Shown here: positions 1-64,000 of the stretch, one piece after another | Layout: every line of letters starts with the position of its first letter | Position numbering within the stretch: position 1 is the first letter of the stretch | From: Squalus acanthias | Taxonomy: Eukaryota | Direction of reading: 5' to 3' | Length of the DNA stretch: 64,000 bases | Assembly (NCBI GenBank): GCA_030390025.1 | Contig: JASTWF010000334.1 | Span: forward strand, 1-64,000 | The notes under the pieces: generated by a model | Told to the model about the DNA's origin: nothing | Seen by the model: only the letters and a program-made list of their open reading frames with translations | The model's database searches: none | Translations under genes and position numbers: made by a program

Positions 1-593
1 CTGACCCGAGTGAGGTCGTTGAACTTTTTTGCGGCATTGAACATGGGTCCTGGGCACCATGCTCCTGGAGGAGACGCCTCTGAGCCACCTCCCTCCACAC
101 TCTTCTGTACTCGCGTGGCCAAAGGCCTCCTGCACTCTCAGGGAAGAGTATAGATTTTCTGCGCTCCACCGCGCCAACCAGAGCATCCAAGGCCCGCTCG
201 GTGAAGCGCTGAGCTCGTTCTCCACCCTCTCCATCCTTGGCAGCAAAATGGATTCACAGGTCTCCTCCAGGCCGAGATTCAAGGCTGCAATGAGCAGGGT
301 GTGGCTGGGGAGCAAGTTGCCCCCCCCCCCTTTAAGAACTGGCCGGCGCCAGTGTGTCTGTGTTCCCTCGCTAACTGGCAGCACCTGCGCTGCGCTCGCG
401 CGCTGAGTTAGCGCCTCACTGCTCGGCCTTTGTGCCTTAAGACAGGTGGTGCAGCGCCTGATTTAGTGCTCCACTCACCTCCCGGGGCGGTAAAAGTGAA
501 GTTTCCAGTCAGTGGCGATAATTAGCGCCAGGCGCTAATTTTTGCGTCCAGACGATATTTGCGCCCAAACGGGGCGCGACCTAATTTTTCCCC
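1..593 (-). mobile_element. End of a PIF/Harbinger transposon carrying a degraded Myb/SANT-like exon 1
   Basis: Minus strand of 1-240 reads, with frameshifts, RAQRFTERALDALVGAVERRKSILFP..VWREVA..RTHVQCRKKFNDLTRV. The terminus AATTTTTCCCC is at 583-593. 400-593 is the near-exact reverse complement of 23455-23650. Confidence 0.85.
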
Positions 594-1544
594 AAAGAGT
601 TGTAGGCTTACAGAGCCTATCTCTGAGACTGAGAATTGCTTGCCCCTTCCAGCAAATTCTGTCTTCCTATTTGAAAGTTTGATATTTTATACCCTTTTTG
701 TCACTGGTATCTCCTTTGAATTTTCTGCTGATGTCAGCTAATTATCTCTAGTCATGTTTCTGTTGACCCCTTGCTATTCTTACAGTCAGTTAATTTGTTG
801 CATTAAGAATTATGTCTCCTCCTTTAGGTGTTCAAAACTTATCAAAACTTATCATATAAACAATGTGACAGCAGTGGTTCTATTTGATGCCATTTTTACG
901 AAGATCTCCTGTTCAATTCTTAAGTCACCTCAGCTGGTGTAAGCAGACTTCGTGTCTCCTATGTATTCCAAGTTCAACACAAAAACAATGTGATTCCTTG
1001 GTGTATCTATTGATGTCATATTTATGAAAGTCTTCTTTTCGTATCTTTTTACAACAGGTAAATTAAAAACACTTCAACCGAGTACATGATTGTCTTCCTA
1101 GCTACCTCAGTTGGTTGTATTAAGAATTCTGTCTCCTGTCTTTCATTTGATGTCATATTTAGGAAGGCATATGTTTCTTTAATGTTCTGTGTTTCTGTTT
1201 CCCGAAGTGTTGGTTTATGACACCTTAACATTAAACCATTGTGCTCTTTCATGTGCCTGTTTACAAAGTGTTGTTTTAAAACAATTTATCCGGGTATATT
1301 GGTTGTCTGTTTTCCAATGCTACAGACTTAGAGGAACCTCCAACCTGTTGCTTCAATAGGGCTACTGTTTCAGTGTCAACAACTGATTCTTATCTCAAAA
1401 GCTTGTAAGCTGTTTACAGCTTTGTGTCGTTGAGGCTTTTAGATTTTCAAACCCAGTTTGTCATGTTTAATAAAGTCAGAATATTTCATAGAATGGTGTA
1501 TTTTTCTGAATAGGTATGGCTCATTCCTTCACAAACTAAAGTCA
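594..1544 (-). repeat. AT-rich segment with diverged internal repeats and a TATA box; possible LTR (U3) remnant
   Basis: Recurrent motifs TTGATG(T/C)CAT(A/T)TTT (~883, ~1010, ~1147) and TAAGAATT.TGTCTCCT (~804, ~1121). GGGTATAAAA on the minus strand at ~686-695. No convincing ORF. Confidence 0.3.
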
Positions 1545-2034
1545 TATACCAAAAGCATGGTGAACATTTATTTCCTTTCCTCCTGGACATCAGATTCCAA
1601 CGAAGACCAGCCGTGGCAGCAGCAGAACCGTGAACAACAACAGCACCAACAGCAGCAGCACCAACAGCAGCAGCAACAACAGGAGCACCAAGCTGCTGCT
1701 CACCCACTTGAAGCTGCACAGGCCAGAAGGCGCCAGCGCGCGACCACATTGCCAGACGGAATGCAAGGGATGCACTCATGTTGGCCAGATTTGCTTAGCC
1801 TGCACAATCAAACAATTTTGCCTCGCACCTTCTTACCAGAGCATCGACAATGGACAAGAACTTGCAGAGTCCTATTACTTTGACCACCATACTGACAATT
1901 GCAAGTCGCCCTAAGCCCTCAATGTGGAAGTCCCATTTGCAAAATGACACAGGCCACAACTTCAACAGGTTGCCATCAAATCTGTTTATGAAACCATGAC
2001 AAGGATGGCTGATCAAAAAACAAGACATCACAAC

Positions 2035-2119
2035 TACAGAAAACGCTGGAAAAACTCAGCAGGCCAGGCAGCATCCGTAGAGAGAGAAAGAGAGTTGACG
2101 TTTCAGGTCGATGACCTTT
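2035..2119 (-). mobile_element. Short Penelope-terminus-derived insertion with a truncated hammerhead core, inside Harbinger A copy 1
   Basis: Minus strand reads TGATGA-A-AGGTC-ATC-GACCT-GAAA-CGTC-AAC..GATGCTGCCTGGCCTGCTGAG. Flanked by the 9-bp duplication CATCACAAC (2026-2034, 2120-2128). Absent from copy 2. Confidence 0.75.
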
Positions 2120-4119
2120 CATCACAACACCCAATTGACTACCCTTGTGACTACTTGTGCTTTATCTTCCTCTTACGCATGCTCCTACGTGGTGCTTCCC
2201 CTTTGGCTTAAGCAGATGTGCTGGCCCCTTGCTCACTTTCTTGCTGCTCCTGTCTCGACACCTTTGGCGGGCGTCCTCTGGGGTTGCGAACCTGTGAGGG
2301 CTCAGCATCGGTCTGCTGCTCCTGCGGCTGTGCAGGGGCTGAGACGCCCATCTCAGTTGGGTGAGGACTCTGGTGCGGCTCTGACCGACGGCTTTGCAAT
2401 GGCATGTTTGTGTGAGCGCTTGGAGAGGAGCCCCCAGTTCCTTGTTGTCTGCCACCAACATCCCTCTCAGGGGTCAGCCCCACTTCAGAGCTAGCAAGTG
2501 GCTTGACAGAACCTCGCTGCACTACAGGGGGGCCATGAGGACACGTTTCTGCACTGGAACTCCTACTCCAGAGGACTTCCATGAAGGTCTGGTTTGTATG
2601 CTCAATAACTGACCATCACTCCTCAAGAGATGTCATTCTATTCTGAACATTGACCATGTTTTCAAGACCTTGGTGACTAAGCTCCTCCATGGTCGTAGCC
2701 ATCCTCTCCTCTACCATAGCCAACCTCTCCTCAAAGCCAGCCTTACCACGGAGGTAGCCATCCTTTCCACGAAGGTTGCCACCCTTTCCGTGGTGATGCG
2801 TTCATGCGCCAATGCCTCTACAAAGGCTCTGCTCATGTTCGCGATAGACTCCTCCATTCGCTCCACACTCTCAGCGACCCTGGAGACAAAGCTTGCCAGA
2901 GACTCCTGCACCTGTTCCTGGAGTTCCAGCAACACTCTCCTTCTGCATGGACCCGGAGGCACAGGGTCGACATGCAGCTAAGCCGAGCTGGCAGAGTCCT
3001 ACGTCCTCCAACGAGGACTCTCCACTGCTGTCCCTGTCTCCACCATCTGCTGATGCTCACTTGTGAGCTGTGATACACCAGGTGACAACACTACTCTATC
3101 TCGTGAAGGTCCCACCGATGTGTGAGTGTCTGCGCTGGTGCTGGGTGCGCTGAATTCTGCTGACGCTGCGCCCTCAGAGATTGCAGCTTCCTCTGAGGAA
3201 TCTGGAGGCTCAGGCTGTTCCTTCTGGACAGTGGGGAAGGGGGGCTTTCGATGGTCCTGTGGGGGAGTAAAGGAAAGAGTTTGAGATGTGCGGTCAAGGT
3301 TACATGCACATTGAATAGTGCAGATGATCAGAAGTCAATATGTTAGAGCATCAGAATCATGATCAGTGACTCATCCCGGCGATTTCCAGGGCTGCCTCCT
3401 CCCAGGCGGTGAGCTGGGCTACTGAGTGTGGCCCTCCTCCTGTCATGGCTCTTTCCCTCTTATTGTGTGCTCTCTTTTCCTGCAATGAGGGACACAAGTG
3501 GAGTTTGAGTGAGAATGAAGGAGTGAGTGTAGAGAATCTATAGCTTAGATGCTTAGAAGGAGACAAAGGGCCCTCCTTGTGTGTTGTAAGATGTTGTCAT
3601 TGCATCACAGTGATAGGGAGTGTGAGGGCTGCATGGTCGAATAGTTAAGTGAATGTGACCATTGAGAGAGAGGAAATGGGTAAGGGTTCAGGGATGTAAG
3701 TGTCAAGTGGGATGTGGAAGAAGAGGTTGGCAAAGCAGAGTGCTGGTGAGGAGAGGCACTGGGGATCAGATTGAGGGTGATGGAAAGTCATACTCACTTT
3801 TCCTGTGCGGAGAAGGTCATGAAACCTCTTCCTGCACTGCAGCCAGGTTCTGCGGCTCATCGAGATGGAGTTGACCTCCTGGGCCACTTGCAGCCACACA
3901 GCTTTAGTCTGCTGGGGTGGCTTTTTTCTCCCTGAGGAAGGGAAGAGCACCTCCTTATTGGATCTTGCTCCCGCCACCAGAATTTGGAGGGAGGGCTCAT
4001 CGCCGCATGGAGCACACTTTGGCCTACTGGTGGACATAGTCAATCATAGTGCTTACTAAAATGGCCATAAAGTTTGCAGTCTCCAGAAGAAGCCAGGCTG
4101 TTTGCAGGCCTTAAAATCC

Positions 4120-4404
4120 CTGTGACCCCACCTCATTGTCTTAGTTGTATTTTGCTGTGTCTTTGATATAATGTCTTCCTGACTGACCTGATTGTCTCTC
4201 TGCCGAGGTGTGATAAAAGGCAGTCAGAAAGATTAACTGTAGTCGTCTGACATTGTACGCTGCACAGGCATTGTTCTCTTTCTATATATGCTTTGACGAT
4301 TCGTATTCCTTCACTTCACCTGACGAAGGAGCAGCAGCTCCGAAAGCTTGTGATTTCAAATAAAAATGTTGGACTATGACCTGGTGTTGTGCGACTTCTC
4401 ACTT
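4120..4404 (+). mobile_element. Penelope pLTR-like / retrozyme-like insertion
   Basis: Absent from the equivalent site in copy 2 (GGCCTTAAATCCAGCAGC at ~27378). Flanked by TTAAAATCC / TTAAATCC. Contains TATATA (~4283), a hammerhead motif and AATAAA (4359-4364). Confidence 0.75.
4316..4353 (+). ncRNA. Minimal type I hammerhead ribozyme motif
   Basis: TCAC-CTGACGA-A-GGAGC-AGCA-GCTCC-GAAA-GCTT-GTGA. It has the conserved CUGANGA and GAAA boxes, a 5-bp stem II, a palindromic AGCT stem III and a TCAC/GTGA stem I. Confidence 0.8.
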
Positions 4405-4608
4405 TTAAATCCAGCAGCATTGATGACGTCATCAGAGGCGACTTTCTGGATGAAAAGACTCATTGGGCCAGGGGTTCCCACACGCTGGAAATCAATTGCT
4501 CAATTAGGGGAAAATCGCACTTTTTCCCCACTTCACTTCGGAGTCGGGGTCCTGACACGAAAACCACCTGACATGCTCCAGCCCGCCCACAATGGCAAAA
4601 TCGAGCCC

Positions 4609-5214
4609 TATATGTCATTCCCTATTGCCAGAGAAGACCAGAGGCAGAGAGCACTCGGATTCAACAGGATTGCGGGATTCCCCATGGTCCAGGGAGCCAT
4701 TGACTGTACACATGTGGTAATGCAAGCCCCTCATTTAAACTCAGGGGTGTTCAGGAACAGGAAGGGATTCCATTCCCTCAATGTACAGATTGTCTGCGAC
4801 CACCGGCAGAGCATCATGCAGGTGATTGCCTGCTATCCAGGGAGCTGCCACAATGCATTTATAATGAGACAGTCATCCGACCCACAGATCTTTAAGACCC
4901 AACGCAATGTACATGGCTGGCTACGAGGTGACAAGGGATACCATCTGATGCCATGGCTCATGACTCCCGAGAAACCCCCAGACACCAGATGAGCACTCAT
5001 ACAATGAGAGCCATTCAGCCACCAGGAATATCATTGAGCAGACCATTGGAGTCCTCAAGCAGAGGTTTAGCTGCCTTGACCATTCAAGAGGTCCCCTGCA
5101 GTACTTGGCCAAGAAGGTGTTCACATTTGTGGTGAATGCTCGACAATCTGGGGATCGTGAGATACCAGCTGTTACCACCAGTAATTGTGCCAGAGGGTCA
5201 AGCTCAGGAGCCAC

Positions 5215-5245
<31 letters not shown>

Positions 5246-5925
5246 AGAAGAGGAGGGGTCCAGCAGGAGCACCAGAGGCTTCCAAGTTGACAGGCTGCAC
5301 CGAGGAGGGACGCTGGCTGCCATCTAATTGAACAGCTCTTTTGAGAGACCTGCTCCACCATCAGACTCTGGAGCACTGTTGCCACACAATGCACCTTCCA
5401 TGACTTAGGGTCCATCAGGCAGTCCATCATCTGCACTCAATCCTTTCAACCCATTCCCCATGAAGATCACAATAAAAATGACCACCGATTCCACTGCTAC
5501 CCAATTACCATGATCACTGTTTATATACATCAAAAAAAACTATGTATACATGACATAAGCAACATCACTTACAAATATTATACTATTCACCCTGGTGCTT
5601 ACCCTTAGCACTCTCTATAAGTGCTCTTGCTTAATCTAGTGCTTCTACGAAGTGCAACCCCAGTGGTAGCAGCAGGCGAGGTGCATGGCTGCTGAGAATC
5701 TGAAGAGGGCAGTTCAGATGTCCTCCTGGGAGACCCTTGAGAGGCTGTTGGCCCTTATAGCCCCGCCTCAGACTGCACCATCTCAGCATGGGCTTCAGCA
5801 ATCTGGGCCGCCTGGCTGGCAGACAACAGCAAGGGCAATGGTAGAGTGGTGGGGTGAGAGCAGCAATGCTGGCATCTGGAGAGGGGCCATTCGGTTCCTG
5901 TTCCATGTTTCCCACACTACTACCT
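4609..5925 (+). pseudogene. 3' half of a HARBI1-like Harbinger DDE transposase plus the 3' end of its convergent Myb partner
   Basis: Motifs [44 protein letters not shown] and (R)NIIEQTIGVLKQRF, followed by an acidic E-run. Stop codons are present. Confidence 0.9.
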
Positions 5926-6034
5926 CAGGGCCTATGTTCAGCCCACCTGATGGAGGACAGATCTGTGGGCATCGGAAGTCCTGCAGTGATGTCCTAGCTC
6001 TGCGATAATGAGCTTCTGACAACCATTTTCCTTT

Positions 6035-6207
6035 AGGTCAGGTGTGACTCCAGTCATTGGAGAGTTTTCACTTTGATCCCCCTTAACCTCAGTTTGGCTC
6101 GGGCTCCTCGGTTGAGTGCTGCCTCTATGTTGAGAGAAGCACCTCTCACCTCTCCTCTGGCACTCAGCTGTTGTGCCCAGATCAAGGCTCTGGTGACGTC
6201 TGGAGCC
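6035..6207 (-). mobile_element. CR1/L2-group LINE RT fragment
   Basis: Reverse complement matches 43690-43880. Confidence 0.65.
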
Positions 6208-6619
6208 TTTCAGTGTGAAAGAAGATGGAAGGCAGGCCCTGCTGAATGATGTATCAGTTACCCGTTTGATGTATCTGTGGGCAGCAAACTGGCCGAGAAT
6301 GTGGATGATCCCTCAGTTAGTCAGGAGGCAGAAAAGTTGGGAGAGGATACTATTAAAGGGACATGGCAGAATAGGAGGACAAAGGAACTTACAACCTTTG
6401 AAAGGCTTAAAGACATCTCCAGTCATTGACAGCCTTTGCAAAGGCTGAAGGGAGAGAGACAAAAATGAAAGTACCGGAAGGCCAAGGTGGAGGCCTGAGT
6501 CTGCAGGCAAGTGAGGGGCTGCCCAGCCCCTGCACCCTGCCGAAGGTTGTTGAAGTGGAGGTGATGCTGCATGATGTGGTTGCTAAGAGGGTTGCCCTCT
6601 GTGTCCCTCTGCCTCACTT

Positions 6620-6908
6620 CCCATCACTCTGTCTCACTCTGTGTCACTCTCTGTCACTCTCCTTCAATGTGTGTCGCCCTGCGTCAATTTGCGTCACGCT
6701 GTGTCAATCTGCCTCAGTTTTTCTCAGTCTGCATCACCCTGTCACTCTGCACGACGCTGTGTCACTCTGAGTCACTCTGAGTAACTCTGTGTCACTCTGT
6801 GTCACTCTGTGTAACGCTGTGTCAATCTGTCCCACACTGTGTCATTCTGTGTCACTCTGAGTAACTCTGTGTCACTCTGAGTCACTCTGAGTCACTCTGT
6901 GTCACTCC
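6620..6908. repeat. 10-bp tandem repeat (GTCACTCTGT)n, degenerate
   Basis: Directly visible. Confidence 0.9.
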
Positions 6909-7505
6909 CCATGCATCCATGTTGCATCAAGTGTGGAAGAAGTATAGGCAGACCTGAGAGCATAGCTGGTCAACATGGTCACTGGCTGTCCCAACACCGT
7001 GTTGCAAGGTGGCTGCAGACATCCTCACAGCAGATAGCACAGCTCTGCACCTGGCTCCTTGCTGACCTGGAACCTATCTATAAAGTTCCCCACTGTTTGG
7101 ACGTTGTGGAGAGTTGAAGGATTAACAGTCGAACTGCTTCATATCATGGAACAATAGACTTTCCAATATAAACAGGATGGCTTGAAGTGTCGTGAGAAGA
7201 AAGCATAGCTGGTCTTCTGACGTGAAAAATGCTTGTGTAAGGAAATAAGTTATGATGTCAGCCATTGGTGATTAAAGTGTAACTTTAGGGGCTAAGGTAA
7301 TAAACATAGGTAGAGGTTTCCAATAGTTATAGTATAGAGAGATAACGGTTGATAAAGCCCGTTCTTCAAAGATGTTGGGAACAGTTAGGTCAGGAAGTCT
7401 TGTTTAAGGGAAGTAGCTTTGGAATAAACAACTACAACTGTTTACATGAATAGACTGTCTACATTATGCAGTCTTATCTTACCTTTGATGTAGGCAAAAT
7501 ATAGT

Positions 7506-10500
7506 GTACTCAAATCCTCTTGCAATGAAGGCCAACATGCCATTTGCCTTCCTATCTGCTTGCTGAACCTACATGTTTGCTTTCAGTGACTGGTGTACAA
7601 GGACACCCAGGTCCCTTTTTTGTACATCAGCATTTACCAATCTAGCACTATTTAAATAATACTCTACCTTTCTGTTTTTCCTACCGAAGTGGATAACTTC
7701 ACATTTATCCACGTTATACTGCATCTGCCATGTATTTGCCCACTCACTCAACTTGTCTAAATCGCCTTGAAGCCTCTTTGCATCCTCCTCACAACTCACA
7801 ATCCCACCTAGTTTTGTGTCATCAGCAAACTTGGAAATATTACATTTGCTTCCCTCATCCAAATCATTGATATATATTGTGAATAGCTGGGGCCCAAGCA
7901 CTGATCCCTGCGGTACCCCACTAGTCACCGCCTGCCACCCGGAAAAAGACCCATTTATTCCTACTCTCTGTTTCCTGTCTGTTAACCAATTTTCAATCCA
8001 TGCCAGTATATTACCCCCTATCCCACGTGCTTTAATTTTGCACACTAACCTCTTATGTGGGACTTTATCAAAGGCCTTCTGAAAATCCAAATACACCACA
8101 TCCACTGGTTCTCCCTTATCTACTCTACCAGTTACATCCTCAAAAAACTCCAGTAGGTTTGTCAAACACGATTTCCCTTTCATAAATCCATGCTGACTTT
8201 GTCTAATACCGTTGATATTTTCTAAGTGTCCTGTTATCACATCCTTTATAATAGACTCTAGCATTTTCCCTACTACTGATGTTAGGCTAACCGGTCTGTA
8301 GTTCCCTGTATTCTCCCTCCCTCCTTTTTTAAATAGTAGGGTTACATTTGCCACCCTCCAATCTGCAGGAACTGTTCCATAATCTATCGAATTTTGGAAG
8401 ATGACAACCAATGCATTCACTATTTCCATGGCTACCTCTTTAGTACTCTGAGATGCAGATTATCAGGCCCTGGGGATTTATCAGCTTTCAGTCCCATTAA
8501 TTTCTCCAGCACTATTTTTTTACTAATACTAATTTCCTTTAATTCCTCCTTCTCACTAGACCCTTGGTTCCCTAGCATTTCTGGGAAGTTATTTGTGTCC
8601 TCTTCCGTGAAGACAGAACCAAAGTACTTGTTTAATTGCACTGCAATTTCCTTGTTCCCCAGTATAAATTCTCCCGTTTCTTACTGTAAGGGACCTACAT
8701 TTGCCTTCACTAATCTTTTTCTTTTTACATACTTGTAGAAGCTTTTACAGTCCGCTTTTATGTTCCTTGCAAGTTTACTCTTATACTCTATTTTTCCCCT
8801 CTTAATCAATCTCTTGGTCCTTTTTTGCTGAACTCTAAACTGCTCCCAATCCTCAGGCTTGCTACTTTTTCTGGCAACTTTATATGACTCCTCTTTGGAT
8901 CTAATACTATCCTTAATTTCTTTTGTTAGCCATGGTTGAGCCACTTTTCCTTTTGTGTTTTTGTGCCAGAAAGGAATGTATAACTGTTGCAATTCATGCA
9001 TTCGTTCCTTAAATGTTAGCCATTGCCTATCCACCATCATGCCTTTTAATGAAGCTCCCCAATCTATCCTATCCAACTCACTCCTCATACCATCGCAGTT
9101 TCCTTTGTTTAGATTTAGGACCTTAGTTTCGGATTGGACTTCTTCACTTTCCATTTTAATGAAGAATTCTATCATGTTATGGTCACTCTTCCCTAAAGGA
9201 CCCCGCACAACAAGGTTATTAATTAAAACCTTCTCATTGCACAATACCCAATCTAGGACAGCCTGTTCCCTAGTATGCTCCTCAACGTACTGGCCTAAAA
9301 AACCATCTCGTACACACTCCAGGAATTCATCCTCCACAGTATTATTGCTAATTTGGTTTGGCCAGTCTATATATAGATTAAAGTCACCCATGATTACTGT
9401 AGTACCCTTGTTACATGCATCTCTAATTTCCTGTTTGATGCCATCCCCTACATTTCCACTACTGTTTGGCGGCCTATAGACAACTCCCACCAATATTTTC
9501 TGCCCTTGGTTCTTCTTAGCTCCACCCAGACTGATTCTACATCTTGATTTTCTGAGCCAATATGCTTTCTCACTATTGCTCTGATTTCATCCTTTACTAA
9601 CAAGGCCACCCCACCTCCTTTGCCTTTTCACCTGTCCTTCCTAAATATCGAATATGCTTGAATATTCAGCTCCCAGCCTTGGTCACCCTGCAGCCATGTC
9701 TCCGTAATTGCAATTATATCATATCCGTTTACATCTATTTGTGTTGTTAATTCTTCAACCTTATTACGAATGCTTCGTGCATTCAGATACAGTGCCTTTA
9801 GATTTGTGTTTTTAACATTTTTAGACATCTTAACATTTTTTTGTACTATGGCCCTATTTGTCTTATTACCATTTTTTCTTACCCAGACCCTATTTGTTAG
9901 TGCACTCCTTTGTTGGTACACTCTGTCCCTTCCTAACTCAATCTGGTTATCCTTACCCCAATCACTTTCCTGCACTGCTTCTTTGTCTTTTCTCTTTAGC
10001 ATTCTAGATTTCACTCCACCAGGACCCTCCCCCACCCCCCTTATTTAGTTTAAAGCCTTATCTACCTCCCTAGTTATTCGATTCGCTAGAACTCTGGTCC
10101 CAGCATGGTTCAGGTGTAGTCCGTCCCAACGGAACAGCTCTCTCTTTCCCCAGTACTGGTGCCAGTGCCCAACGAATTGAAACCCACTTCTCCCACACCA
10201 ATCTTTGAGCCATGCATTCATCTCCCTGATCCTATTGACCCTATGCCAATTTGCTCGTGACTCTGGTAATAATCCAGAGATTATGACCTTTGTGGTTCTG
10301 CTTTTTAATTTAGTCCCTAGCTGCTCAAACTCTCTCAACAGAAACTCTTTCTTTGTCCTACCTATGTCGTTGGTACCTACGTGGACCACTACAACTGGAT
10401 CCTCCCCTCCCACTCCAAGTACTTCTCCAGATGTCCTTTACCCTGGCACCGGGTAGGCAACATAGCCTTCGGGACTCACGCTCCTGGCTGCAGTGAACAG

Positions 10501-13183: not shown

Positions 13184-15661
13184 AGGGCGATTTTCTGATG
13201 TCGGAGGAGGCGGGTTTGGAGGCGGGTATGGCGTGTAAATCAGAAACAATGAGGGCGGGTTCGGAACCCGCCTCCAGCCCGCCTCCGCGGGATTTTGCCG
13301 GTGCTGGTTTTGGAGGTCAGGAAACGGTCCTGCCTCCAGCTGGCCATAGTGATACTTGTGATCATTAAATGCTCATTAAGGGCCTCTCTAAACCTATTTT
13401 GAGAGGCCTTCGTGATTTTTCGAGCATTTCGGCGTGCTCCACGCACCTCCTAAACCACGCCAAGTAAACCTGGCGGGTTGACTCGTGGGTGGCCTCCTCA
13501 CAGCTGCAGGTCCAACAAGACATCGTTTATTTCATCAGGGATTACTTGCAGGTGCCAGACCTTTGCTTTAAAAGGTCTCTGAGCACTTTTAGAAGGCCTT
13601 CCAAAGTCAGAGGTGCTGCAGCTTGAATCTATCAACTGTGGGACCTACTTGGAAGACCCTCTCCCCACTTGCAATGAGCGCTTCCCCAAAGAAGGCATCT
13701 GCAAGCAGCATGGGGACCATTTGTTTTCTTTCTGCATGGACCTCAGATGAGGATGAGGAGCATCCACGGCAGCAGCAGAACCAGCCAGCTCAGGAGCAAC
13801 AGCAGCAGGAGCCCCAACCTCCTGCTCAGCCACCTGATGCTGCACAGGGCAGAAGGCACCAGCGCATCGAGGCACCTCGCCGAAGGAGATATCCCCGACA
13901 GAGGGTTTACAGACAGAGGATGAGCTACCTCAACATGAGTGAGCAGCAGTTCCAAAGGAGGCTGAGACTTTCGCGAGAGTTTGTCCGAGAGATCTGCGGC
14001 CTGCTGCAGAAAGACCTGGTGCCCAGAGGATCGGGTGGATACCCCTTACCAGTGGCTGTCAAAGTCGCCACCGCACTCAACTTCTTTGCCTCAGGCTCCT
14101 TCCAGGGATCATCAGCAGACATCAGTGGCATCTCCCAGTCGGCTGCCCACAGTTGCATCACGCAGGTTACTGATGCCCTTTTTGCTAAGGCCCACAATTA
14201 CATCCATTTCACAAGGGGTCAAGCAAGTATAACCGCCCGTTCGGTTGGCTTTGCAAATATGGCAGGCATGCCAATGGTGCAGGGCGTCATAGACTGCACA
14301 CATGTGGCCCTTAGGGCACCCCATCACAACCCAGCTATCTTTGTCAACCGCAAGGGCTTCCACTCCCTCAACGTACAGCTGGTGTGTAACCACAAGAAGG
14401 AGTTCTTGCATGTTTGAGCCAAGTTCTGTGGTAGTTGCCATGAATCTTTCATCCTGCGGCAGTCTAGTGTTCCTCCGCTTTTCAATCTGCCAAACCAACT
14501 TAACGGATGGCTCCTTGGTGACAAAGGCTGCCCCATGAAGAAGTGGCTAATGACGCTGATCAGGAGGCCAGCTAACGAGGCAGAAGAGCGCTACAACGCC
14601 AGCCACACTTCAACCAGGTCCAACATTGAGCAAACCATTGGGTTGTTGAAGATGCGCTTCTATTACCTTGAATGATCAGGTGGAGCCCTGCAGTATACAC
14701 CATACAGGGTCTCCAGAATGGTCGTGGTCTGCTGTGCATTGCACAGCATCGTGGCTTGCAGCTTCCTGAGGAGCAAGTAGCTCAGTTCTAGCCCTCCTCA
14801 GATGAGGATGAGGAGGAGGAGGAGCAGGAGGCTGAGGCAGAGGAGGAGCAGGAGGAGGTACGAGCGCCGGTGTATCGACCAGCAGCAGCGGCAGCATGCG
14901 AGCACATGACTGCCCGGGATGGAAGGGATGAACATATCCTGGCCAGATTTGCATAGGTTGCCCAAGTTGGCACATGTCCTTGGGTCCATACTCAGACATC
15001 ATTGACAATGGACATGACTCTCTTGCCTCCTTTCACTCAGGCCACCAACCTGACAATGCAAGTGTGGCGGAGCCCGCAATGTGGAGCTGCCTAAGGTGAA
15101 TGAACAGATGCCATAACGCCAACATTTTGGCATCAAATCATTTTAATGCTTTCCAACAGGGATGGCATTTCATCAATACACAGAAACATTCTCCCAATCT
15201 GCACACAGATGTGGAGGTTATATCCCTTGCCAGCTGTACCCACACAACCTTCTTTGGGAGGCCTCTTCCTCCCAGATGAGTGGAAGAGCACCTCCCTGCT
15301 AGCTGCCACCCCATCAAACAACATTTGCAGCACCTCATCCGAGAGCCTTGGGGAGGCCTTGCCTTGGAATTGGCTATAGTGGGATCTCAAAATATGTTGC
15401 AGGTGGTGCAGCATAGGCAGAAATCCTGTGGAATGAGCCAAGGGAGCAAGAAGCCATAAAATCAGTCTGGAAAAATGATGTCAACAGAGGTGGGTTTCAG
15501 TCCCAAAATACTAATTGAGCAAGGGCATCCCACACCTCTGAAATCAGGTGGCCAATCATGGGAAAATCTCAATTTTTTGAAAACTATCAGTGGAGGCGGG
15601 TTTCAAACCCACCCAAACTGTAACCTGCCTGCATCTCGGCTCCAGTGTGAAAATCGCCCCC
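13184..15661 (+). mobile_element. Harbinger element with a near full-length transposase and a truncated Myb remnant
   Basis: TIRs GGGCGATTTTC / GAAAATCGCCC. Myb remnant PRLSDEVLQMLFDGVAASREVLF on the minus strand (15150-15365). TSD is not clear. Confidence 0.85.
13710..14956 (+). pseudogene. HARBI1-like DDE transposase (~415 codons) with premature stops and indels
   Basis: [84 protein letters not shown]. First stop at 14415. Confidence 0.92.
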
Positions 15662-16465
15662 AATGTTTTGTGATCTACTGAGATCATTGAAAGGTTTGTG
15701 CCACGATGAGGTAGAAGATCAACCATGATCTTATTGAATGGCGGAGCAGGCTTGAAGGGCCAAATGGCCGACTCCTTCTCCTATTTCTTATGTTATGTTC
15801 TTATACTGCAGCCTGGTCCTCCCTGCTTGTGTCCTCCTGTGCAATGTGCAACCAGGCTGCGTTGGTGTCCTGGGGAGGTCTCTTCCGCCCATTGGAAGGG
15901 AAGAGAACCTCCCTGCGTGCTGTGACTCCCTCCATAAGCATATGGAGGGAGTCATGGGAGAGCCTGGGTGCAGCTCTGCATCTTTGTGCAGTGCTTGTCA
16001 GGGGTTGAAGCACCTCAATGCTGTAGAACACTGACAGCTCAAATATCAAAGTAAATTTGCACATGGTCCCTTTAAGGAAACCAGCTGATGACGTGTCATC
16101 GAATGACGTCATTAGACCCGCTTCCTTCAATTGGCCAGCAAACGTGCTGGGCGGGCTTAACAAGCCTCATCAGGGGAATGTCATTTTACACAGCGGGCTG
16201 GAGCCAGCAGCGAGGCCGTAACCCACCACCGAACTCTCCCGACACGGACCCGCTGAGGTTGGTAAAATCCAGTCCAGTGAGACAGAGGGAGAGAGAGAGA
16301 GAGAGAAAAGGACAGAGAGAGGGAAAGAGAGAGAAAGTGTGAGAGAGTCACAGAGAGAAAGGGAGAGAGGGAGAGAGAGACAGACAGAAACACAGAAAGT
16401 GAGAGACAGAAACAGAGAGAAAGATAGGCAAGTAGAGAAGGCAAGAGAGAGAAACAGAGAAAGAG

Positions 16466-24358: not shown

Positions 24359-27300
24359 GGGCTTGATTTTGCCAGGCCCGTGGAGGCAGGATTGGAGGCA
24401 TGTGAGGTGTTAAAATTGCAAAAACTGGTGGGCGTGCCCTATCCTGCCTCCATCCCGCAATTTTCCCACATGCGAGTTTTCTGACCCCGTCTCTATCCCG
24501 CCTCCCAGAGGCGGGAAAGGCCCTTAAGGCCCTTAACAACCAGTTAAGTGCCTCTATAATCCCATTTTGAGAGGCCTTTCTGATTTTAACACTTTTCCCA
24601 CGTGCTTCCCGCCTCCTCTGAACACGCCAGTGAAACCTGGTGGCAACACAAGTGGATTGCTTACTTACAGCTGCAGCTCCACCATTAAAAATGTGTTTTC
24701 AGCAATCTTCATTTGTAAGTGGCAGAACTTTGTTGTCTCAGGTCTGGGGGAACTTTAAGCAGGCATACCCATTGTTGTGGAAGTTTGGAGCCTGACACCC
24801 ATCTCCAGTGTGACCTCCTGGGAAACCCCTCTCGCCACCTTGACTGAGCGCTTCCTCAACTGAGGCATATACCAGAAGCATGGGAACCATTTATTTGCTT
24901 TCCTCCTGGACATCAGATTCGGACGAAGACCAGCCGTGGCAGCAGCAGAACCATGAACAACAGCACCACCAGCAGCAGCAGCATCAAAAGGAGTGCCAAG
25001 CTGCTGCTCACCCACCTGAAGCTGCACAGGCCAGAAGGTGCCAGCGTGCGACTACATTGCTGCCTGGGATGCAAGGGAGGCACTTCACCAGATTTGCTTA
25101 GCCTGCACAATCAAACACTTTTGCCTCGCACCTTCTTATCAGACCATCGACAATGGCCAAGATCCTGTGGATTCCTATCACTCTGACCACCATACTGACA
25201 TTTGCAAGTCATACTAAGCCCTCAATGTGGAAGTCCCATTTGCGAAATGACAGACGCCACAACTTCAGCAGTTTGCCAGCAGAATTTTTTATCACACTAA
25301 GCATGTGCTGGCATTTCAAGATTAAACACAACATTACACCCAAGTGACTACCCTTGTGACTACTTGTGCATTATTTTTCTTTTACGCGTGCTTCTACGTG
25401 GTGCTTCCCCTGTGACATCAGCAGATGTGGAGGCCCCTTGCTCACTTTCTTGCTGATCCTGCCTCGACACCTTTGGCGGGCGTCCTCTGGGGTTGCGAGC
25501 CTGTGAGGGCTCGGCAACAGTCTGTTGCTCCTGCGGCTGTGCAGGGGTTGAGACGCCGATCTCAGTTGGGTGGGGACTCTGGTGGGACTCTGACCGAGGG
25601 CTCTGCAGTGGCATGGAAGTGTGAGCGCTTGGAGAGGAGCCCCCACTTCCTTGATGTCTGCCACCAACTTCCCTCTCATGGGTCAGCTCCACCTCAGTGC
25701 TTGCAAGTGGCTTGAGAGCACCTTGCTGCACATCAGGGGGGCCATGGGGACCCGTCTCTGCACTGGCAGTCCTACTCAGAAGGACTTCCATGAAGCTCTG
25801 GTTTCTCTGTTAAATAGCTGACCATTGCTCCTCCAGAGATGTCAGTCTATTCTGAACACTCACCATGTTTTCCTCACTTCGGCGACTTACTGCCTCCATG
25901 GCCGTAGCCAGCCTTTCCACAGAGCTTGCCATCCTTTCCGTAGTGCTGCGTTCATGCGCCAATGCCTCCACAAAGGCTCTGCTCATGTTAGCGAGGGACT
26001 CCTCCATTCGCTCCACACTCGCAGCTACCCTAGAGACAAAACCTGCCAGAGACTCCTGCACCTGTTGCTGGAGTTCCAGCACCGCTGTTCTTCTGGATGG
26101 ACCCGGAGGCACAGGATTGACATGCAGCTGAGCCGAGCTGGCAGAGTCCTGCGCCCTCCGACGAGGACTCTCCATTGCTGTCCCTGTCTCCACCATCTGC
26201 TGATGCTCACTTGTGAGCTGTGATACACCAGGTGACAACACTACTCTATCTCGCGAGGGTCCCACCGAGGTGTGAGTGTCTGCGCTGGTGCTGGGTGCTC
26301 TGAATTCTGCTGATGCTACGCCCTCAGAGGTTGGAGCTTCCTCTGAGGAGTGTGGAAGCTCAGGGTCTTCCTCCTGGACAGTGGGGATGGTGGCTTTGGA
26401 TGGTCCTGTGGGGAAGTAAAGGAAAGAGTTAGAGATGTGAGGTCATGGTTACATGAACATTGAATAGTGCAGATGATCATAAGTCAATCAGTTAGAGCAT
26501 CAGCTTCATTATCAGTGACTCATGCAATGTCAATGAGAGAGATGCCAAACTATTCTGGCACCAGCTTGCTGTGATGCGCCCGTCTGTCCGTCCCCCACTT
26601 GCGCACCCTCCTCCACTCCCACAATCTCCAGGGCCGCCTCCTCCGCAGGGGTGAGCTGGGCTATTGAGGGTGGCCCTCCTCCTGTCCTCGCCCTCTCCCT
26701 CTTATTGTGGGCTCTCTTTTCCTGCAATGAGGGACACAAGTGGAGTTTGAGTGAAAATGAAGAAGTGAGTGTAGAGATTCCATAGCATAGATGCTTAGAA
26801 GGAGACAAAGATGGAGTGAGGTGCCAGGACCAAGGGCCCTCCCTGTGTGTTGTAAGTTATTGTCATAGCATCACAGTAGTAGGGAGTGTGAGGGCTGCAT
26901 AGTCGAATAGCTAAGTGAATGTGAACATACAGAGAGAGGGAATGGGTAAGGGTGCAGGGATGTCAGTGTCAAGTGGGATGTGGAGGAAGAGGTTGGCAAA
27001 GCAGAATGCTGGTGAGGAGAGGCGATGGGGATCAGATTGAGGGTGATGAGAAAGTCATACTCACTTTTCCAGTGCGCAGAAGGTCATGAAACCTCTTCCT
27101 GCACTGCAGCCAGGTTCTCCGGCACATAGACAGAGAATTGAGCTCCTGGGCCACTTGCATCCACACAGCTTTAGTCTGCTGAGGAGGCTTTTTCCTCCCT
27201 GAGGAAGGGAAGAGCACCTCCTTATTGGATCTGGCTTCCTCCACCAGAGCTTGCAGGGCGGCTTCATCAAAGCGTGGAGCAGACTTTGGCCTGCTGCTGG

Positions 27301-27585
27301 ACATCGTTGCTGAAATAAGGGCTTACAGCAATGGGCATGAAGTTTGTAGTCTGCAGAAGAAGCAAGGCTGCATGCAGGCCTTAAATCCAGCAGCACTGAT
27401 GACGTCATCGGAGGCGACTTTCAGGATGGAAAGACTAATTGGGCCAGGGGTTCCCACACGCTGGAAATCAAGTGTCCAATTCGGGGAAAATCGCAATTTT
27501 TTCCCACATCTCATTGGAGATAGGGTGGCTAACACGAAAACCAGCTGACACGCCCCCAGCCCGCCCCAATGGCAAAATCGAGCCC
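24359..27585. mobile_element. Harbinger family A, copy 2 (TIR to TIR, 3.2 kb): transposase deleted, Myb gene retained
   Basis: TIRs GGGCTTGATTTTGCCA / TGGCAAAATCGAGCCC. Transposase stub at 24880-25101. Confidence 0.92.
25360..27304 (-). pseudogene. Harbinger Myb/SANT-like DNA-binding gene, 3 exons (27304-27065, 26721-26562, 26405-25360), ~481 codons with one in-frame stop
   Basis: GT-AG junctions with phases 0 and 1 join into one frame: Myb domain (APRFDEAALQALV..WMQVAQELN..TWLQCRKRFHDL), EKRAHNKRERARTGGG, a coiled coil, and C-terminal RRSTRKRK. Single TAA at 25810-25812. Confidence 0.85.
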
Positions 27586-39318: not shown

Positions 39319-41912
39319 AGATGCTCCGCCATTCAATAAGATCATGGCTGATCATCAACCTCAACTCCACTTTCCCGCCCTGTCCCCATATCCCTTGATT
39401 CCCCTAGAGTCCAAAAATCCATCTATCTCAGCCTTGAATATACTCAAAGACTCAGCATCCATAGCCCTCGGGGGCAGAGAATTCCAAAGATTCACAACCC
39501 TCTGAGTGAAGAAATTCCTCTTCATCTCGGTCTTAAATGGCCTACCCCTTATCCTGAGACTATGCCCCCTAGATCGAGAATCTCTAGCCAGGGGAAACAA
39601 CCTCTCAGCATCTAACCTGTCAATCCCCTTCAGAATCTTATATGTTTCAATGAGATCACCTCTCATTCTTCTAAACTCCAGAGAGTATAGGCCCATTCTA
39701 CACAATCTCTCATCCTAGGACAGCCCTCTCATCCCAGGTATCAATCTAGTGAACCTTCGTTGCACCACCTCCAAGGCAAGTATATCCTTCCTTAGATAAG
39801 AAGACCAAAACTGTGCACAGCACTCCAGGTGTGGTCTCACCAAGGCCCTGTACAATTGTAGCAAAACTTCCTTACTCTTATACTCCAACCCCCTTGCAAT
39901 AAAGGCCAACATGCCATTTGCCTTCCTTATTGCTTGCTGTACCTGCATGCTAGCTTTCTGTGTTTCTTGCACGGGGACACACAAATCTCTCTGAACACCA
40001 ACATTTAAAAGCTTCTTACCATTTAAAAAATATTCCGTTTTTCTATTCTTCCTACCAAAGTGAATAACCTCACATTTCCCTACATTATACTCCATCTGCC
40101 ACCTTACTGCCCATTCACTTAGTCTATCTATATCCCTTTGCAGGCTCGTTGTATTCTCCTCACAGCTTACTGTCCCACCTAGCTTTGTATCATCAGCAAA
40201 CTTGGATACATTACACTTGGTTCCTTCATCTAGGTCACTAATATAGATTGTAAATAGCTGAGGTGCGAGCACTGATCCTTGCAGCACCCCACTAGTTACA
40301 GCCTGCCAACCTGAAAAAGACCCGTTTATCCCTACTCTCTGTTTTCTGTCCATTAACCAATCCTCTATCCATGCTACTATATTGCCCCCAACCCCATGAA
40401 CCCTGATCTTGTGTAATAACCTTTTATGTGGCACCTTATCGAATGCCTTTTGGAAATCCAAATATATGGCATCCACTGGTTCCCTTTTATCTACCCTGCT
40501 AGTTACATCCTCAAAAAACTCTAATAAATTTGTCAAACACGATTTCCCTTTCATGAAACCATGTTGACTCTGCCTAATCGGGTTATGATTTTCTAAGTAC
40601 CTCTTCCCTAACAATGGATTCCAGCATTTTCTCGATGACTGATGTCAGGCTAACTGGCTTGTAGTTCCCTGTTTACTCTCTCCCTCCTTTCTTCAATAGC
40701 AGTGTTACATTTGCTACCTTCCAATCCGCTGGGCCCGTTCTAGAATCTAGGGAATTTTGGAAGATCAAAACCAATGCATCCACTATCTCTTCAGCCACCA
40801 CTTTTAGAACCCTAGGATGTAGGCCGTCAGGTCCAGGGGATTTGTTGGCTTTTAGTCCCATTAGTTTCTCTAGTACTTTTTCTCTACTTATATTAATTAT
40901 GCTAAGTTCGTCACCCTCATTCGACCCTTGGTTCCCCACCATTTTTGGTATGCTTTTTGTGTCTTCGACTGTGAAGACAGATACACAATATTTGTTCAAC
41001 GTTTCTGCCATTTCCTTATTCCCCATAATCATTTCTCCTGTCTCAGCGTCTAAGGGACCAACGTTTACTTTGGCTACTCTCTTCCTTTTTACATAGTGTA
41101 GAAGCTCTTACAATCTGTTTTTATACTTCTTGCTAGTTTTCTCTCATATTCTATTTTTTCCCTTTTAATCAATTTTTTGGTCATCCTTTCCTGGTTCCTG
41201 AAACTCGCCCAATCCTCAGGCTTACTATTATTCTTTGTAATATTATAAGCTTCTTCTTTCAATCTAATGCTATCCTTAAATTCTTTAGTTAGCCACAGAT
41301 GGATCACTTTTCCTATGGAGTTTTTGTTTCACAATGGAATGTATTTTTTTTGAGAATGATGAAATATTTCTTTAAATGCTAGCCACTGCTTATCTACCGC
41401 CATACCTTTTAATCTATTTTTCCAAGCTACCTCAGCCAACTCGCCACTTATATCTATGTCATTGGATTTATTTTAGTTTAAGACTCTAGTTTCGGAGTTA
41501 GGCAAGTCACTCTCAAACTTAATGTGAAATTCTATCATATTATGATCACTCTGCCCCAGAGGATCCTTCACTATAAGATTGCTAATTAACCCTGTCTCAT
41601 TACACAATACAAGATCTAAAATAGCCTGTTCCCTGGTTGGTTCCATGACATACTGTTCTAGGAAACTGACCTGAATGAATTCCATTAATTCGTCCTCCAG
41701 ACTACCTTTATCAATTTGATTTGTCCAGTCTATATGAAGATTAAAGTCCCCCACGATTATTGCATTACCTTTGTTGCAAGCTCCTACTATTTCTTGATTA
41801 ATATTCTGTCCAACGGTATAGCTACTGTTAGGGGGCCTATGTACTACTCCCACCAGTGTTTTCTGCCCCTTGTTATTCCTTATCTCCACCCATACTGATT
41901 CTACTTCCTGAT
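39319..41912 (-). mobile_element. 5'-truncated CR1 inserted into an L2
   Basis: EN, RT and 3' region motifs. The L2 sequence AAATCTGCCGTTAT (39297-39309) resumes at CATCCCCTCTCCTCAAAAAA (41913). Confidence 0.95.
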
Positions 41913-43689: not shown

Positions 43690-44258
43690 AGGCTCCAGGA
43701 CTCGTCAGTTCCTTGATCCAGGCATGGACACAAGAGCCGAGTGCCAGAGGAGAGGTGAGAGGAGCTGCTCTCAACATAGAGGCAGCACTCGACCGAGTGT
43801 GGCACCAAGGAGCCCGAGCAAAACTGAGGTCAATGGGGATCAAAGTAAAAACCCTCCAGTGACTGGAGTCACACCTAACCCAAAGGAAGGTGGTCGTGGT
43901 TGTCAAAGGTCAATCATCGCAGACCTAGGACATCAGTACAGGACTTCCTCAAGGAAGCATCATTGGCCCAACTACCTTCAGCTGTTTCATGAATGACCTT
44001 CCCTCCACCATAAGGGCAGGACTGGGGCTGTTCACTGATGATTCCACAGCATTCAGCTCCATTCATAACTCCTCTGATAAAGAAGCAGCCCATACCAGCC
44101 TACACAGGGACCTGGATTAAATCCAGCCTTGGGCTGACAAGTGGCAGGTAACATTTCCACCACATCAATGGCAGGTAATGACCATCTCCAACAAGAAGAG
44201 GCCAACCAAATCCCCCCGACTTTCAATGGCACCATCACTGTTGAGTCTCCACCACCTG
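43690..44258 (+). mobile_element. Old CR1/L2-group LINE RT fragment
   Basis: PQGSIIGPTTFSCFMNDLP..LFTDD and WADKWQVTF. Confidence 0.75.
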
Positions 44259-44259
44259 A

Positions 44260-44915
44260 GAGGAGCCGGCAGCAGCGAGGAGGCATAACTACAGCGGGAG
44301 GCCGAGGACAGCGCGGACCTGCGAGGAGCCGGCAGCAGCGAGGAGGCATAACTACAGCAGGAGGCCGAGGACAGCACGGACCTGCGAGGAGCCGGCAGCA
44401 GCGAGGAGGCATAACTACAGCGGGAGGCCGAGGACAGCGCGGACCTGCGAGGAGCCGGCAGCAGCGAGGAGGCATAACTACAGCGGGAGGCCGAGGACAG
44501 CGCGGACCTGCGAGGAGCCGGCAGCAGCGAGGAGGCATAACTACAGCGGGAGGCCGAGGACAGCGCGGACCTGCGAGGAGCCGGCAGCAGCGAGGAGGCA
44601 TAACGACAGCGGGAGGCCGAGGACAGCGCGGACCTGCGAGGAGCCGGCAGCAGCGAGGAGGCATAACTACAGCGGGAGGCCGAGGACAGCGCGGACCTGC
44701 GAGGAGCCGGCAGCAGCGAGGAGGCATAACTACAGCAGGAGGCCGAGGACAGCGCGGACCTGCGAGGAGCCGGCAGCAGCGAGGAGGCATAACTACAGCG
44801 GGAGGCCGAGGACAGCGCGGACCTGCGAGGAGCCGGCAGCAGCGAGGAGGCATAACTACAGCGGGAGGCCGAGGACAGCGCGGACCTGCGAGGAGCCGGC
44901 AGCAGCGAGGAGGCA
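44260..44915 (+). repeat. 63-bp CpG-rich tandem array (10 full units plus a partial one) at the 5' end of a CR1
   Basis: Unit GAGGAGCCGGCAGCAGCGAGGAGGCATAACTACAGCGGGAGGCCGAGGACAGCGCGGACCTGC; very few substitutions. Confidence 0.97.
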
Positions 44916-51140: not shown

Positions 51141-51445
51141 TGAGGTGGAAGGGCAGGTGTTGTATCTCCTGTGCTTGCGTGGGAAGGTGCTGTGGGAAGG
51201 GGAGCACGTGTTGGGGGTGATAAAAGAGTGGACCAATGTGTTGTGAGGATACAGATCTTTCAAAATGCTGAAAGGGAAAGGGAGGGAAAGTTGTGTGAGT
51301 TTTTGGCTTTATAATAGATATTGGTTGACAGCCTATCTCCAGAAATGCAGATGGAGAAGCCGGGAAAGGAAGAGTCAGAAATGGACAATGTGAAGACAAA
51401 GGAGGTGTAGAAATTTGAAGCAAAGTTGATGAAAATTTCAAGTTG
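51141..51445 (-). mobile_element. Penelope-like element RT C-terminal/linker fragment (intronic)
   Basis: NFINFASNF..FTLSISDSS..ISGDRLSTNIYYK and TFPRKHRRYNTCP, a degenerate Cys linker of the kind that precedes GIY-YIG. Confidence 0.65.
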
Positions 51446-62941: not shown

Positions 62942-63124
62942 GTAAGTTGATGCTGCAAAGTGTGACAGTGTTTTTATTGGAACTTAAATCCAGACAACTG
63001 GATAGATCGACTGAGATTAATGAGCTTCTAACTGGACTCAGTGTGGTTGAGTTTTAGACTTCGGCAGGGCTCAACTTCTGCATCTTTTGCAGCCACCTTC
63101 CAAGTAAAGCTGTTTAATAGAGGA

Positions 63125-63706
63125 ATGAACACGGGTCACACACTGTCGATAGAGGAATGTACACTGGGTGTAACACTGTCGATAGAGGAACGTACACTGG
63201 GTGTAACATTGTAGATAGAGGATCGTACACTGGGTGTAACACTGTCGATAGAGGAATGTACACTGGGTGTAACGCTCTAGATAGAGGATCGTACACTGGG
63301 TGTAACACTGTCGATAGAGGAACGTACACTGGGTATAACACTGTCGATAGAGGAACGTACTCTGGGTGTAGCATTGCAGATAGAGGAACGTACACTGGGT
63401 GTAGCACTGTAGATAGTGGAATGTACACTGGGTGTAACACTGCAGATAGAGGAACGTACACTGGGTGTAACATTGTAGACAGAGGAACGTACACTGGGTG
63501 TAGCACTGCAGATAGAGGAACGTACACTGGGTGTAACACTGCAGATAGAGGAACGTACACTGGGTGTAACATTGTAGACAGAGGAACGTACACTGGGTGT
63601 AACACTGTCGATAGAGGAACATACACTGGGTGTAACACTGCAGATAGAGGAACGTACACTGGGTGTAACATTGTAGATAGAGGAACGTACTCTGGGTGTA
63701 AAACTG
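63125..63706. repeat. 33-bp intronic minisatellite, ~17 copies (TACACTGGGTGTAACACTGTCGATAGAGGAACG)
   Basis: Directly visible. Confidence 0.97.
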
Positions 63707-64000
63707 CAGTTTCTCCCTCCACTCAATTGACTATCTCTTTGGATTCTGCAGTGTTGAGGCTAAAGTGAGACCAACCTTATAATTGGCCCACATTGAATGA
63801 GCTGTTCCTGACATGGCTGGAGCCGTACTCCCATTGGACAGGATTCCACTCTGTGTTTACACAGCGTTCTCAGAAAATTATTCAACCTTCCTGTATCCGG
63901 CCCTCACTTTACTGATACACCAAACACCCCGCCCCCTTTCCACAGGGGGTTCAATTCCCAGATTTAAAATGATATAATCCGGACACAGAGATTCTAACTC

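Follow-up and report, generated by a model that had tools for sequence, protein, structure and literature searches.

A minimal hammerhead ribozyme motif in a probable truncated Penelope-like element end inserted in a shark Harbinger transposon

Introduction

Minimal hammerhead ribozymes of Penelope-like elements (PLEs), together with solo or truncated pseudo-LTRs (pLTRs), optional tails and short target-site duplications, have already been published, including in reviews (PMC6155905, PMC6765202). The minimal hammerheads described by Cervera and De la Pena in 2014 (PMC4209133) have a CUGANGA core, an extra nucleotide before G10.1, a G10.1-C11.1 pair, a short stem I and a palindrome at 15.2-16.2 only; they are flanked by a U-rich 5′ side and an AU-rich 3′ side, and mostly occur as single dispersed copies derived from truncated PLEs. 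All of these traits recur at the locus described here. In Fig. S3 of that work, the turtle (Chrysemys) entry shares the letters G, C, U and U flanking the cut, and its stem I is likewise followed by AAUAAA. Neither Fig. S3 nor Table S1 has an entry from a cartilaginous fish, and the family of the present insert is not listed.

Two further systems are close to it. The Penelope pLTRs of the rotifer A. vaga (Arkhipova et al. 2013, PMC3846280) share with the insert a short pLTR, a putative TATA box with an initiator-like TCACT, an optional tail, duplications of 8-10 bp, microhomology junctions and the occurrence of solo pLTRs. They differ in the TATA-initiator distance, which is 20 bp by the authors' count as against 30 nt in the insert. 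For Penelope of D. virilis, a TATA-less internal promoter was described (PMC2377424). PAc, a Poseidon-type PLE of Anolis carolinensis (Frangieh et al. 2024, PMC11167929), likewise uses an A/T-rich target and has an optional AC-rich tail; its insertions end internally to the RNA, and its hammerhead lies upstream of the priming site and is uncut in the template. Unlike Penelope/Poseidon, however, the endonuclease ORF related to the present family carries a CX2-5CxxC linker, and protein-assisted cleavage is a feature of PAc.

Animal non-LTR retrozymes (PMC7229834; bioRxiv 10.64898/2026.07.22.740005) resemble the insert in size, low GC content, type I hammerhead, pLTR ancestry and the presence of dispersed monomers. 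In contrast to them, the insert carries a minimal rather than a canonical hammerhead, forms no tandem array in the DNA analysed and shows no fixed unit length. An expansion of PLEs has been noted for the whale shark. In the literature searched, no shark-specific description of the insert's family was found; Repbase, Dfam and the supplements of the 2026 preprint may include it.

The Insert and Its Target Site

The locus lies in a stretch of 64 kb (the window), within a PIF/Harbinger DNA transposon. The two ORFs of this host element are divergent, and the insert occupies the spacer that separates them. The features of the host and of the target site are as follows.

3789-4040, minus strand: exon of the Myb/SANT-like ORF of the host Harbinger (Pfam PF13873, E=9.9e-10)
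4111-4119, plus strand: left target-site copy, TTAAA exact at 4111-4115; read as 9 nt, it has one A more than the right copy
4405-4412, plus strand: right target-site copy TTAAATCC, TTAAA at 4405-4409; its first one or two T also match the 3′ end of the element
4699-5104, plus strand: HARBI1-like DDE transposase remnant of the host Harbinger (PF13359, E=2.3e-17 and E=7.1e-08)
27381-27388, plus strand: empty target site in the paralogous Harbinger copy, with TTAAATCC once (self-comparison, junction model)

The transposase downstream of the insert is frameshifted, being split over two reading frames near 4970. All six of its protein matches are HARBI1-like proteins of the sharks Heptranchias perlo or Pristiophorus japonicus (42-64% identity), which agrees with the shark host proposed for the insert's family by an earlier, first-pass annotation of the letters alone. 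A third, more diverged Harbinger-like copy was observed at 13376-15950, with a DDE match at 14046-14660 and DNA matches to 3872-3993, 4423-4525 and 4681-4803.

The insert itself, 285 bp at 4120-4404 on the plus strand, has a GC content of 42.8% and is without a long ORF; its ends are uncertain by 2-4 nt. Its absence from a paralogous Harbinger copy, as first proposed, is borne out. In the self-comparison of the window, 2127-4115 and 4405-4608 are 85-87% identical to the paralog at 25336-27585, leaving a clean gap where the insert lies; the flanking alignment blocks pair 3382-4115 with 26624-27385 (85.7%) and 4405-4608 with 27381-27585 (87.4%). In junction modelling, the best model takes out 294 bases, and the starts from 4111 to 4116 all score alike, so that the exact duplication is TTAAA. 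A joint from 4110 to 4405, with five letters fitting both sides, is present in contigs of three of the four runs examined, from three organisms. The contigs that skip the insert in this way are other Harbinger copies or empty alleles. The self-comparison detected no further copy of the insert within the 64-kb window at E<0.01.

The flanking duplication of about 8 bp had also been claimed, and this holds in part. Five base pairs, TTAAA, are exact, and an exact 8-bp duplication was rejected, as the left copy has an extra A: eight base pairs are obtained only with a one-base slip. An 8-bp duplication followed by a later slip of one base is the simplest reading of the target site. The repeat family includes the CC at 4118-4119 as well, contigs of run X10 matching from 4118; as these two letters are shared, the 5′ boundary of the insert is ambiguous. 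A short target-site duplication at an A/T-rich site, as found here, is among the traits expected of PLEs.

The Hammerhead and Its Flanking Motifs

Four motifs follow one another on the plus strand of the insert.

4283-4290, plus strand: TATA-box match TATATATG (TATAWAWR), its first T 30 nt before the initiator A; putative promoter element
4311-4317, plus strand: initiator match TCACTTC (YYANWYY), A4313 being the predicted start; stem I begins 3 nt further on
4316-4353, plus strand: minimal type I hammerhead motif, fitting the consensus in Fig. S3 of PMC4209133; predicted cut between 4349 and 4350
4359-4364, plus strand: match to the poly(A) signal, AATAAA; a G/T-rich stretch lies downstream at about 4382-4391

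The TATA box, the hammerhead letters and the AATAAA are thus present as originally read. Stem I of the hammerhead has 4 bp (TCAC 4316-4319 with GTGA 4350-4353), and stem II has 5 bp (GGAGC 4328-4332 with GCTCC 4337-4341) closed by a 4-nt loop. The core consists of CTGACGA (4320-4326) and GAAA (4342-4345), with A4327 as an additional nucleotide after A9. The palindrome AGCT (4345-4348) stands in place of stem III and is followed by U17 at 4349. Every core position fits the published PLE consensus: C3, U4, G5, A6, N7, G8 and A9 at 4320-4326, G12, A13, A14 and A15.1 at 4342-4345, and U16.1 and H17 at 4348-4349. The predicted cut after CUU at 4349 agrees with the standard numbering.

A structural descriptor of our own gave a single site, this one, over both strands of the window and no match in 300 dinucleotide shuffles. 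Three features that PMC4209133 describes beyond the descriptor used there are likewise found, namely the nucleotide between 9 and 10.1, the G10.1-C11.1 pair (G4328-C4341) and a palindromic 15.2-16.2 without a stable stem III, stems I and II being formable. A U at position 17 is frequent in Fig. S3 of the same work. The covariance-model check of the first-pass annotation, in turn, gave no hammerhead family in Rfam at E up to 10 for 3500-5000 and 4290-4380, with one chance match each. On its own, CTGANGA..GAAA occurs in the window about as often as chance predicts (8 found, 8.3 expected). The minimum-energy fold of 4305-4365 consists of hammerhead stems I and II; the fold z-score of the region is ordinary (−1.39), and the 3′ end is likewise unremarkable.

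TATAWAWR and YYANWYY are the consensus patterns of the TATA box and the initiator, and about 30 nt is their usual spacing. In 20,000 shuffles of the insert, TATAWAWR alone appeared in 242; in four, a TATA box was paired with an initiator 29-32 nt away, the initiator test having been picked after the sequence had been viewed. Of the TATAWAWR sites in the window, 1/15 on the plus strand (the one at 4283) and 2/16 on the minus strand have an initiator partner. AATAAA is common by chance, occurring in 738 of 20,000 shuffles. No poly(A) run closes the insertion, whose end lies 40 nt beyond the AATAAA; this would be expected of priming inside unprocessed RNA, as shown for PAc. A bacterial promoter scan, of a type unsuited to this genome, found nothing.

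An Abundant Family with a Variable 5′ End

Parts of the stretch were found in 20 of 24 listed runs, from eight studies covering seven organisms and one unlabelled row. Detailed mapping covered assembled contigs from four of these 24 runs, two of them presumed RNA, and may favour contigs resembling the window; of 331 loose ends 24 are listed, and of 42 variant rows 40. In each of the four runs, 185 to 6,787 contigs align, as expected of a very abundant repeat. Summed over contigs, depth at 4380-4394 exceeds the left flank by a factor of 314 to 8,597 across these runs, and 4305-4319 by a factor of 5.6 to 30; these ratios are not copy numbers, and the profile is 3′-biased. At about 4320, all four show an upward step in depth of 2.4- to 3.9-fold. 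Among the 24 loose ends listed, five lie before 4311-4318. A short CTAAC word was observed near this junction in runs X3, X9 and X19; this may reflect a further subfamily, or else copies headed by the hammerhead that recurrently have a short 5′ end.

The family extends beyond both ends of the insert. Four contigs of run X10 continue 5′ of 4118, and past 4406 an AC-rich continuation, missing from the window copy, is present in 39 contigs of run X3 and 13 of run X9. By analogy, this continuation fits the optional tail of PLEs, which is 30-40 bp long (PMC8557442, PMC11167929). Four head-to-tail back-joints are listed in run X3, returning to 4252, 4264, 4350 and 4368. One contig of that run joins 4393 back to 4350, the first base past the predicted cut; it could be a copy of cleaved RNA or a local 44-bp duplication aided by similar words. 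The continuation past both ends, the depth rising towards the 3′ end and the scattered back-joints point to variable 5′ truncation and partial tandems with no fixed unit. Variable 5′ truncation, a defined 3′ end and an optional tail are again traits of PLEs.

Among the variant rows listed (40 of 42), 7 of 285 places separate the window copy from the run X3 majority, and none of these is in the ribozyme. The Harbinger paralogs diverge by 13-15%, and by this comparison the insertion looks young. The variants listed that the hammerhead consensus tolerates are at N7, in loop II (two), at H17 and at one wobble; the H17 change, U to C at the cut-site position 4349, makes up 16% of the depth in run X3. 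Two that it does not tolerate are U4C (1-14%) and one stem I change (4-12%). Among the 32 variable places listed in the insert, one of 13 core positions and 31 of 272 others are affected (p=0.56), and no significantly lower variation was found in the core, stems, TATA box or AATAAA (p 0.16-0.82). No listed variant falls in the eight TATA places, which is not significant. There are no compensatory base changes among the contig variants listed for the four runs, and such data could hardly show covariation.

Link to Penelope-Like Element Coding Sequences

A scan of metagenomes gave two marine contigs, L001 and L002, which overlap by 677 bp at 99.6% identity. The core and stem II were fixed in the search pattern; 28 of the approximately 61 letters matching the two contigs were preset. 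Outside the pattern, they share with the window stem I, an upstream ACGATT, the AATAAA and the downstream words GGAC and GTG. The TATA box is absent from these contigs of a distant family. L001 and L002 may be host or environmental animal DNA within microbial assemblies. Matches L003 and L004 in prokaryote genomes lack a proper stem II, one also having G at position 17, and were dropped as chance; two hammerhead patterns gave no match in viral contigs.

The related hammerhead of L002 is preceded on its own strand, at a distance of 750 nt, by the end of a GIY-YIG ORF (48-581) with a C-x3-C-x2-C linker. Pfam gave no name to this endonuclease fragment; it is 44-47% identical to two proteins combining reverse transcriptase (RT) and endonuclease, and relatives include turtle proteins and one protein of Scyliorhinus torazame. 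The CX2-5CxxC linker occurs in this ORF of the related family and in the shark protein P0042; as Nematis also has it, it marks the putative source as Neptune or Nematis. On L001, the shared 677-bp part adjoins an RT fragment in inverted orientation (RVT_1 at E=1.5e-5, under the curated cut-off). The best match of this RT fragment among 120 proteins, a set gathered with a Neptune-type query, is the Scyliorhinus torazame protein just named (65% over 86 aa). At its start, L002 carries part of its own 3′ region in inverted orientation. By analogy with the head-to-head arrangement described for PLEs (PMC8557442), the two contigs would represent such a layout of 5′-truncated copies; they are two overlapping contigs of one family related to that of the window, and possibly a chimeric assembly.

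Beside the insert there is no PLE ORF, and the 64-kb window holds no clear one. Weak PLE-type tblastn matches on the minus strand at 51287-51445 (E about 5e-4 to 9e-4) and 40225-40461 (E 9e-5) could stem from the degraded RT of either a PLE or a LINE. Elsewhere in the window, two tandem arrays, each open in several reading frames, were observed at 44254-44915 (period about 63 bp, copies 98-99% alike) and 63117-63709 (about 66 bp, 84-89% alike), as well as an imperfect palindrome of 114 bp at 55089-55202 (76% self-complementary).

Is the Ribozyme Active?

Minimal hammerheads were reported not to cleave as monomers and to cleave little as dimers (PMC4209133). Of nine Xenopus dimers, one cleaved and eight did not (bioRxiv 10.64898/2026.07.22.740005); cleavage by the PAc hammerhead needs the PLE protein and PAc insertion does not need cleavage (PMC11167929). 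The role of PLE hammerheads is stated as open in PMC8557442 and PMC11167929.

In two-strand folding of the present motif, both a pair of monomers (−25.8) and another possible duplex (−31.5) are more stable than the double hammerhead (−23.3 kcal/mol), in energy models that leave the tertiary contacts of the core out of account. The hammerhead stems have a probability of 3-4% in the read-through RNA 4313-4406 and of 26-34% in the whole insert; the RNA 4313-4385, which ends near the poly(A) site, folds into stems I and II. Self-cleavage of the lone window copy appears doubtful, since there is one copy, the active dimer is not favoured in the folding models, and published minimal hammerheads are inactive as monomers or depend on protein. 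The hammerhead at 4316-4353 is intact but alone, and most likely inert at its locus; the folding models make activity less likely without deciding the matter.

Origin of the Insert

The insert is very probably the retrotransposed 3′ end (3′ UTR or pLTR) of an endonuclease-positive PLE, probably of Neptune type, that arrived 5′-truncated, tail-less and dead. The origin from a PLE terminal repeat, which the first-pass annotation had proposed, is supported by the fit of the motif to the PLE consensus, the 3′-biased depth and the optional tail. Judging by how PLEs are known to work biochemically, an autonomous copy would have supplied the GIY-YIG endonuclease to cut an A/T-rich site in the spacer of the Harbinger element. 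Reverse transcription would then have begun inside the RNA, at an inner tail-less site about 55 nt past the ribozyme cut, with priming probably aided by the one or two shared T. Synthesis halted after about 285 nt, and the 5′ end was joined through short microhomology, as the outcome at the site, with its duplication of 5-8 bp, shows. Duplications of 8-10 bp and microhomology junctions are reported for PLEs (PMC3846280). As both sides of the cut site were copied, the template RNA had not been cut at its own hammerhead.

The hammerhead, the TATA box with its initiator and the AATAAA would all be parts of the parent pLTR. In partial tandems, this pLTR may act as the promoter of the ORF that follows it and supply the 3′ end of the one before, and cleavage would presumably take two copies or the element's protein. 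A more specific proposal, made tentatively and rather unlikely to hold in full, concerns the function of this arrangement: transcription would start at the TATA box and initiator at about 4313, and a cut after 4349 would strip a capped leader of about 37 nt, the ribozyme acting as a decapping or translation switch and not as a cutter that resolves tandems. The step in depth at about 4320 could equally come from subfamilies sharing only the 3′ module.

Of the other readings, a non-LTR retrozyme monomer is improbable. It would be a fixed non-autonomous unit of about 285-360 bp, transcribed from tandem arrays, cut by paired hammerheads, circularised and reinserted by PLE enzymes. The size and GC content of the insert do fit the 150-450 bp and under 45-50% GC given for retrozymes (PMC7229834), the 2026 preprint has retrozymes with a mean of 363 bp in its one chondrichthyan genome, dispersed monomers being counted, and head-to-tail joints do occur in run X3. 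The four joints listed, however, all return to different places, the family passes both 4118 and 4406 with its depth rising 3′-ward, and the window holds a single copy and no tandem array of the insert; the fixed solo pLTR or retrozyme unit first envisaged is therefore not upheld. Moreover, the motif is of the minimal PLE type and not of the canonical loop-loop type by which retrozymes are defined in PMC7229834. The preprint (bioRxiv 10.64898/2026.07.22.740005) derives retrozymes from pLTRs, and to that extent the two readings overlap.

It is very improbable that the cassette is functional where it lies, its RNA from about 4313 cleaving itself in trans or with PLE protein, or the cassette ending or driving transcription towards the transposase. 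The intact motifs, the few differences from the run X3 majority among the rows listed, the rare TATA-initiator spacing and the folding of 4313-4385 would suit such a role, but a young insertion would look intact anyway, the read-through RNA and the paired strands favour other folds, the downstream transposase is frameshifted and most Xenopus dimers failed to cleave. Hardly any credence can be given to the solo LTR of an ordinary LTR retrotransposon with a hammerhead-like motif arisen by chance. In the insert, TG (4121-4122) and CA (4400-4401) look like LTR termini, and the TATA box and AATAAA stand in LTR order; yet the bases flanking this TG and CA differ and form no duplication, the family runs past both places without fixed ends, and the hammerhead is far beyond chance and common to PLE-linked contigs. 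An ordinary solo LTR is thus largely refuted.

Outlook

As one among very many truncated PLE ends, a single locus is of little weight. What it adds to the motif described in 2014 is a shark example with a clean empty site. The copy is also long enough to retain the region upstream of the ribozyme, where the TATA box and initiator predict a start at the ribozyme's edge. If the tentative switch were true, the ribozyme would be the first part transcribed, with three bases from the start to stem I, and a start at about 4313 would explain the surplus of copies running from hammerhead to tail as full-length short transcripts, a by-product of the promoter resembling SINEs. A start mapped beside the ribozyme in a family of such very high copy number would make the role of PLE hammerheads testable by 5′-end sequencing.
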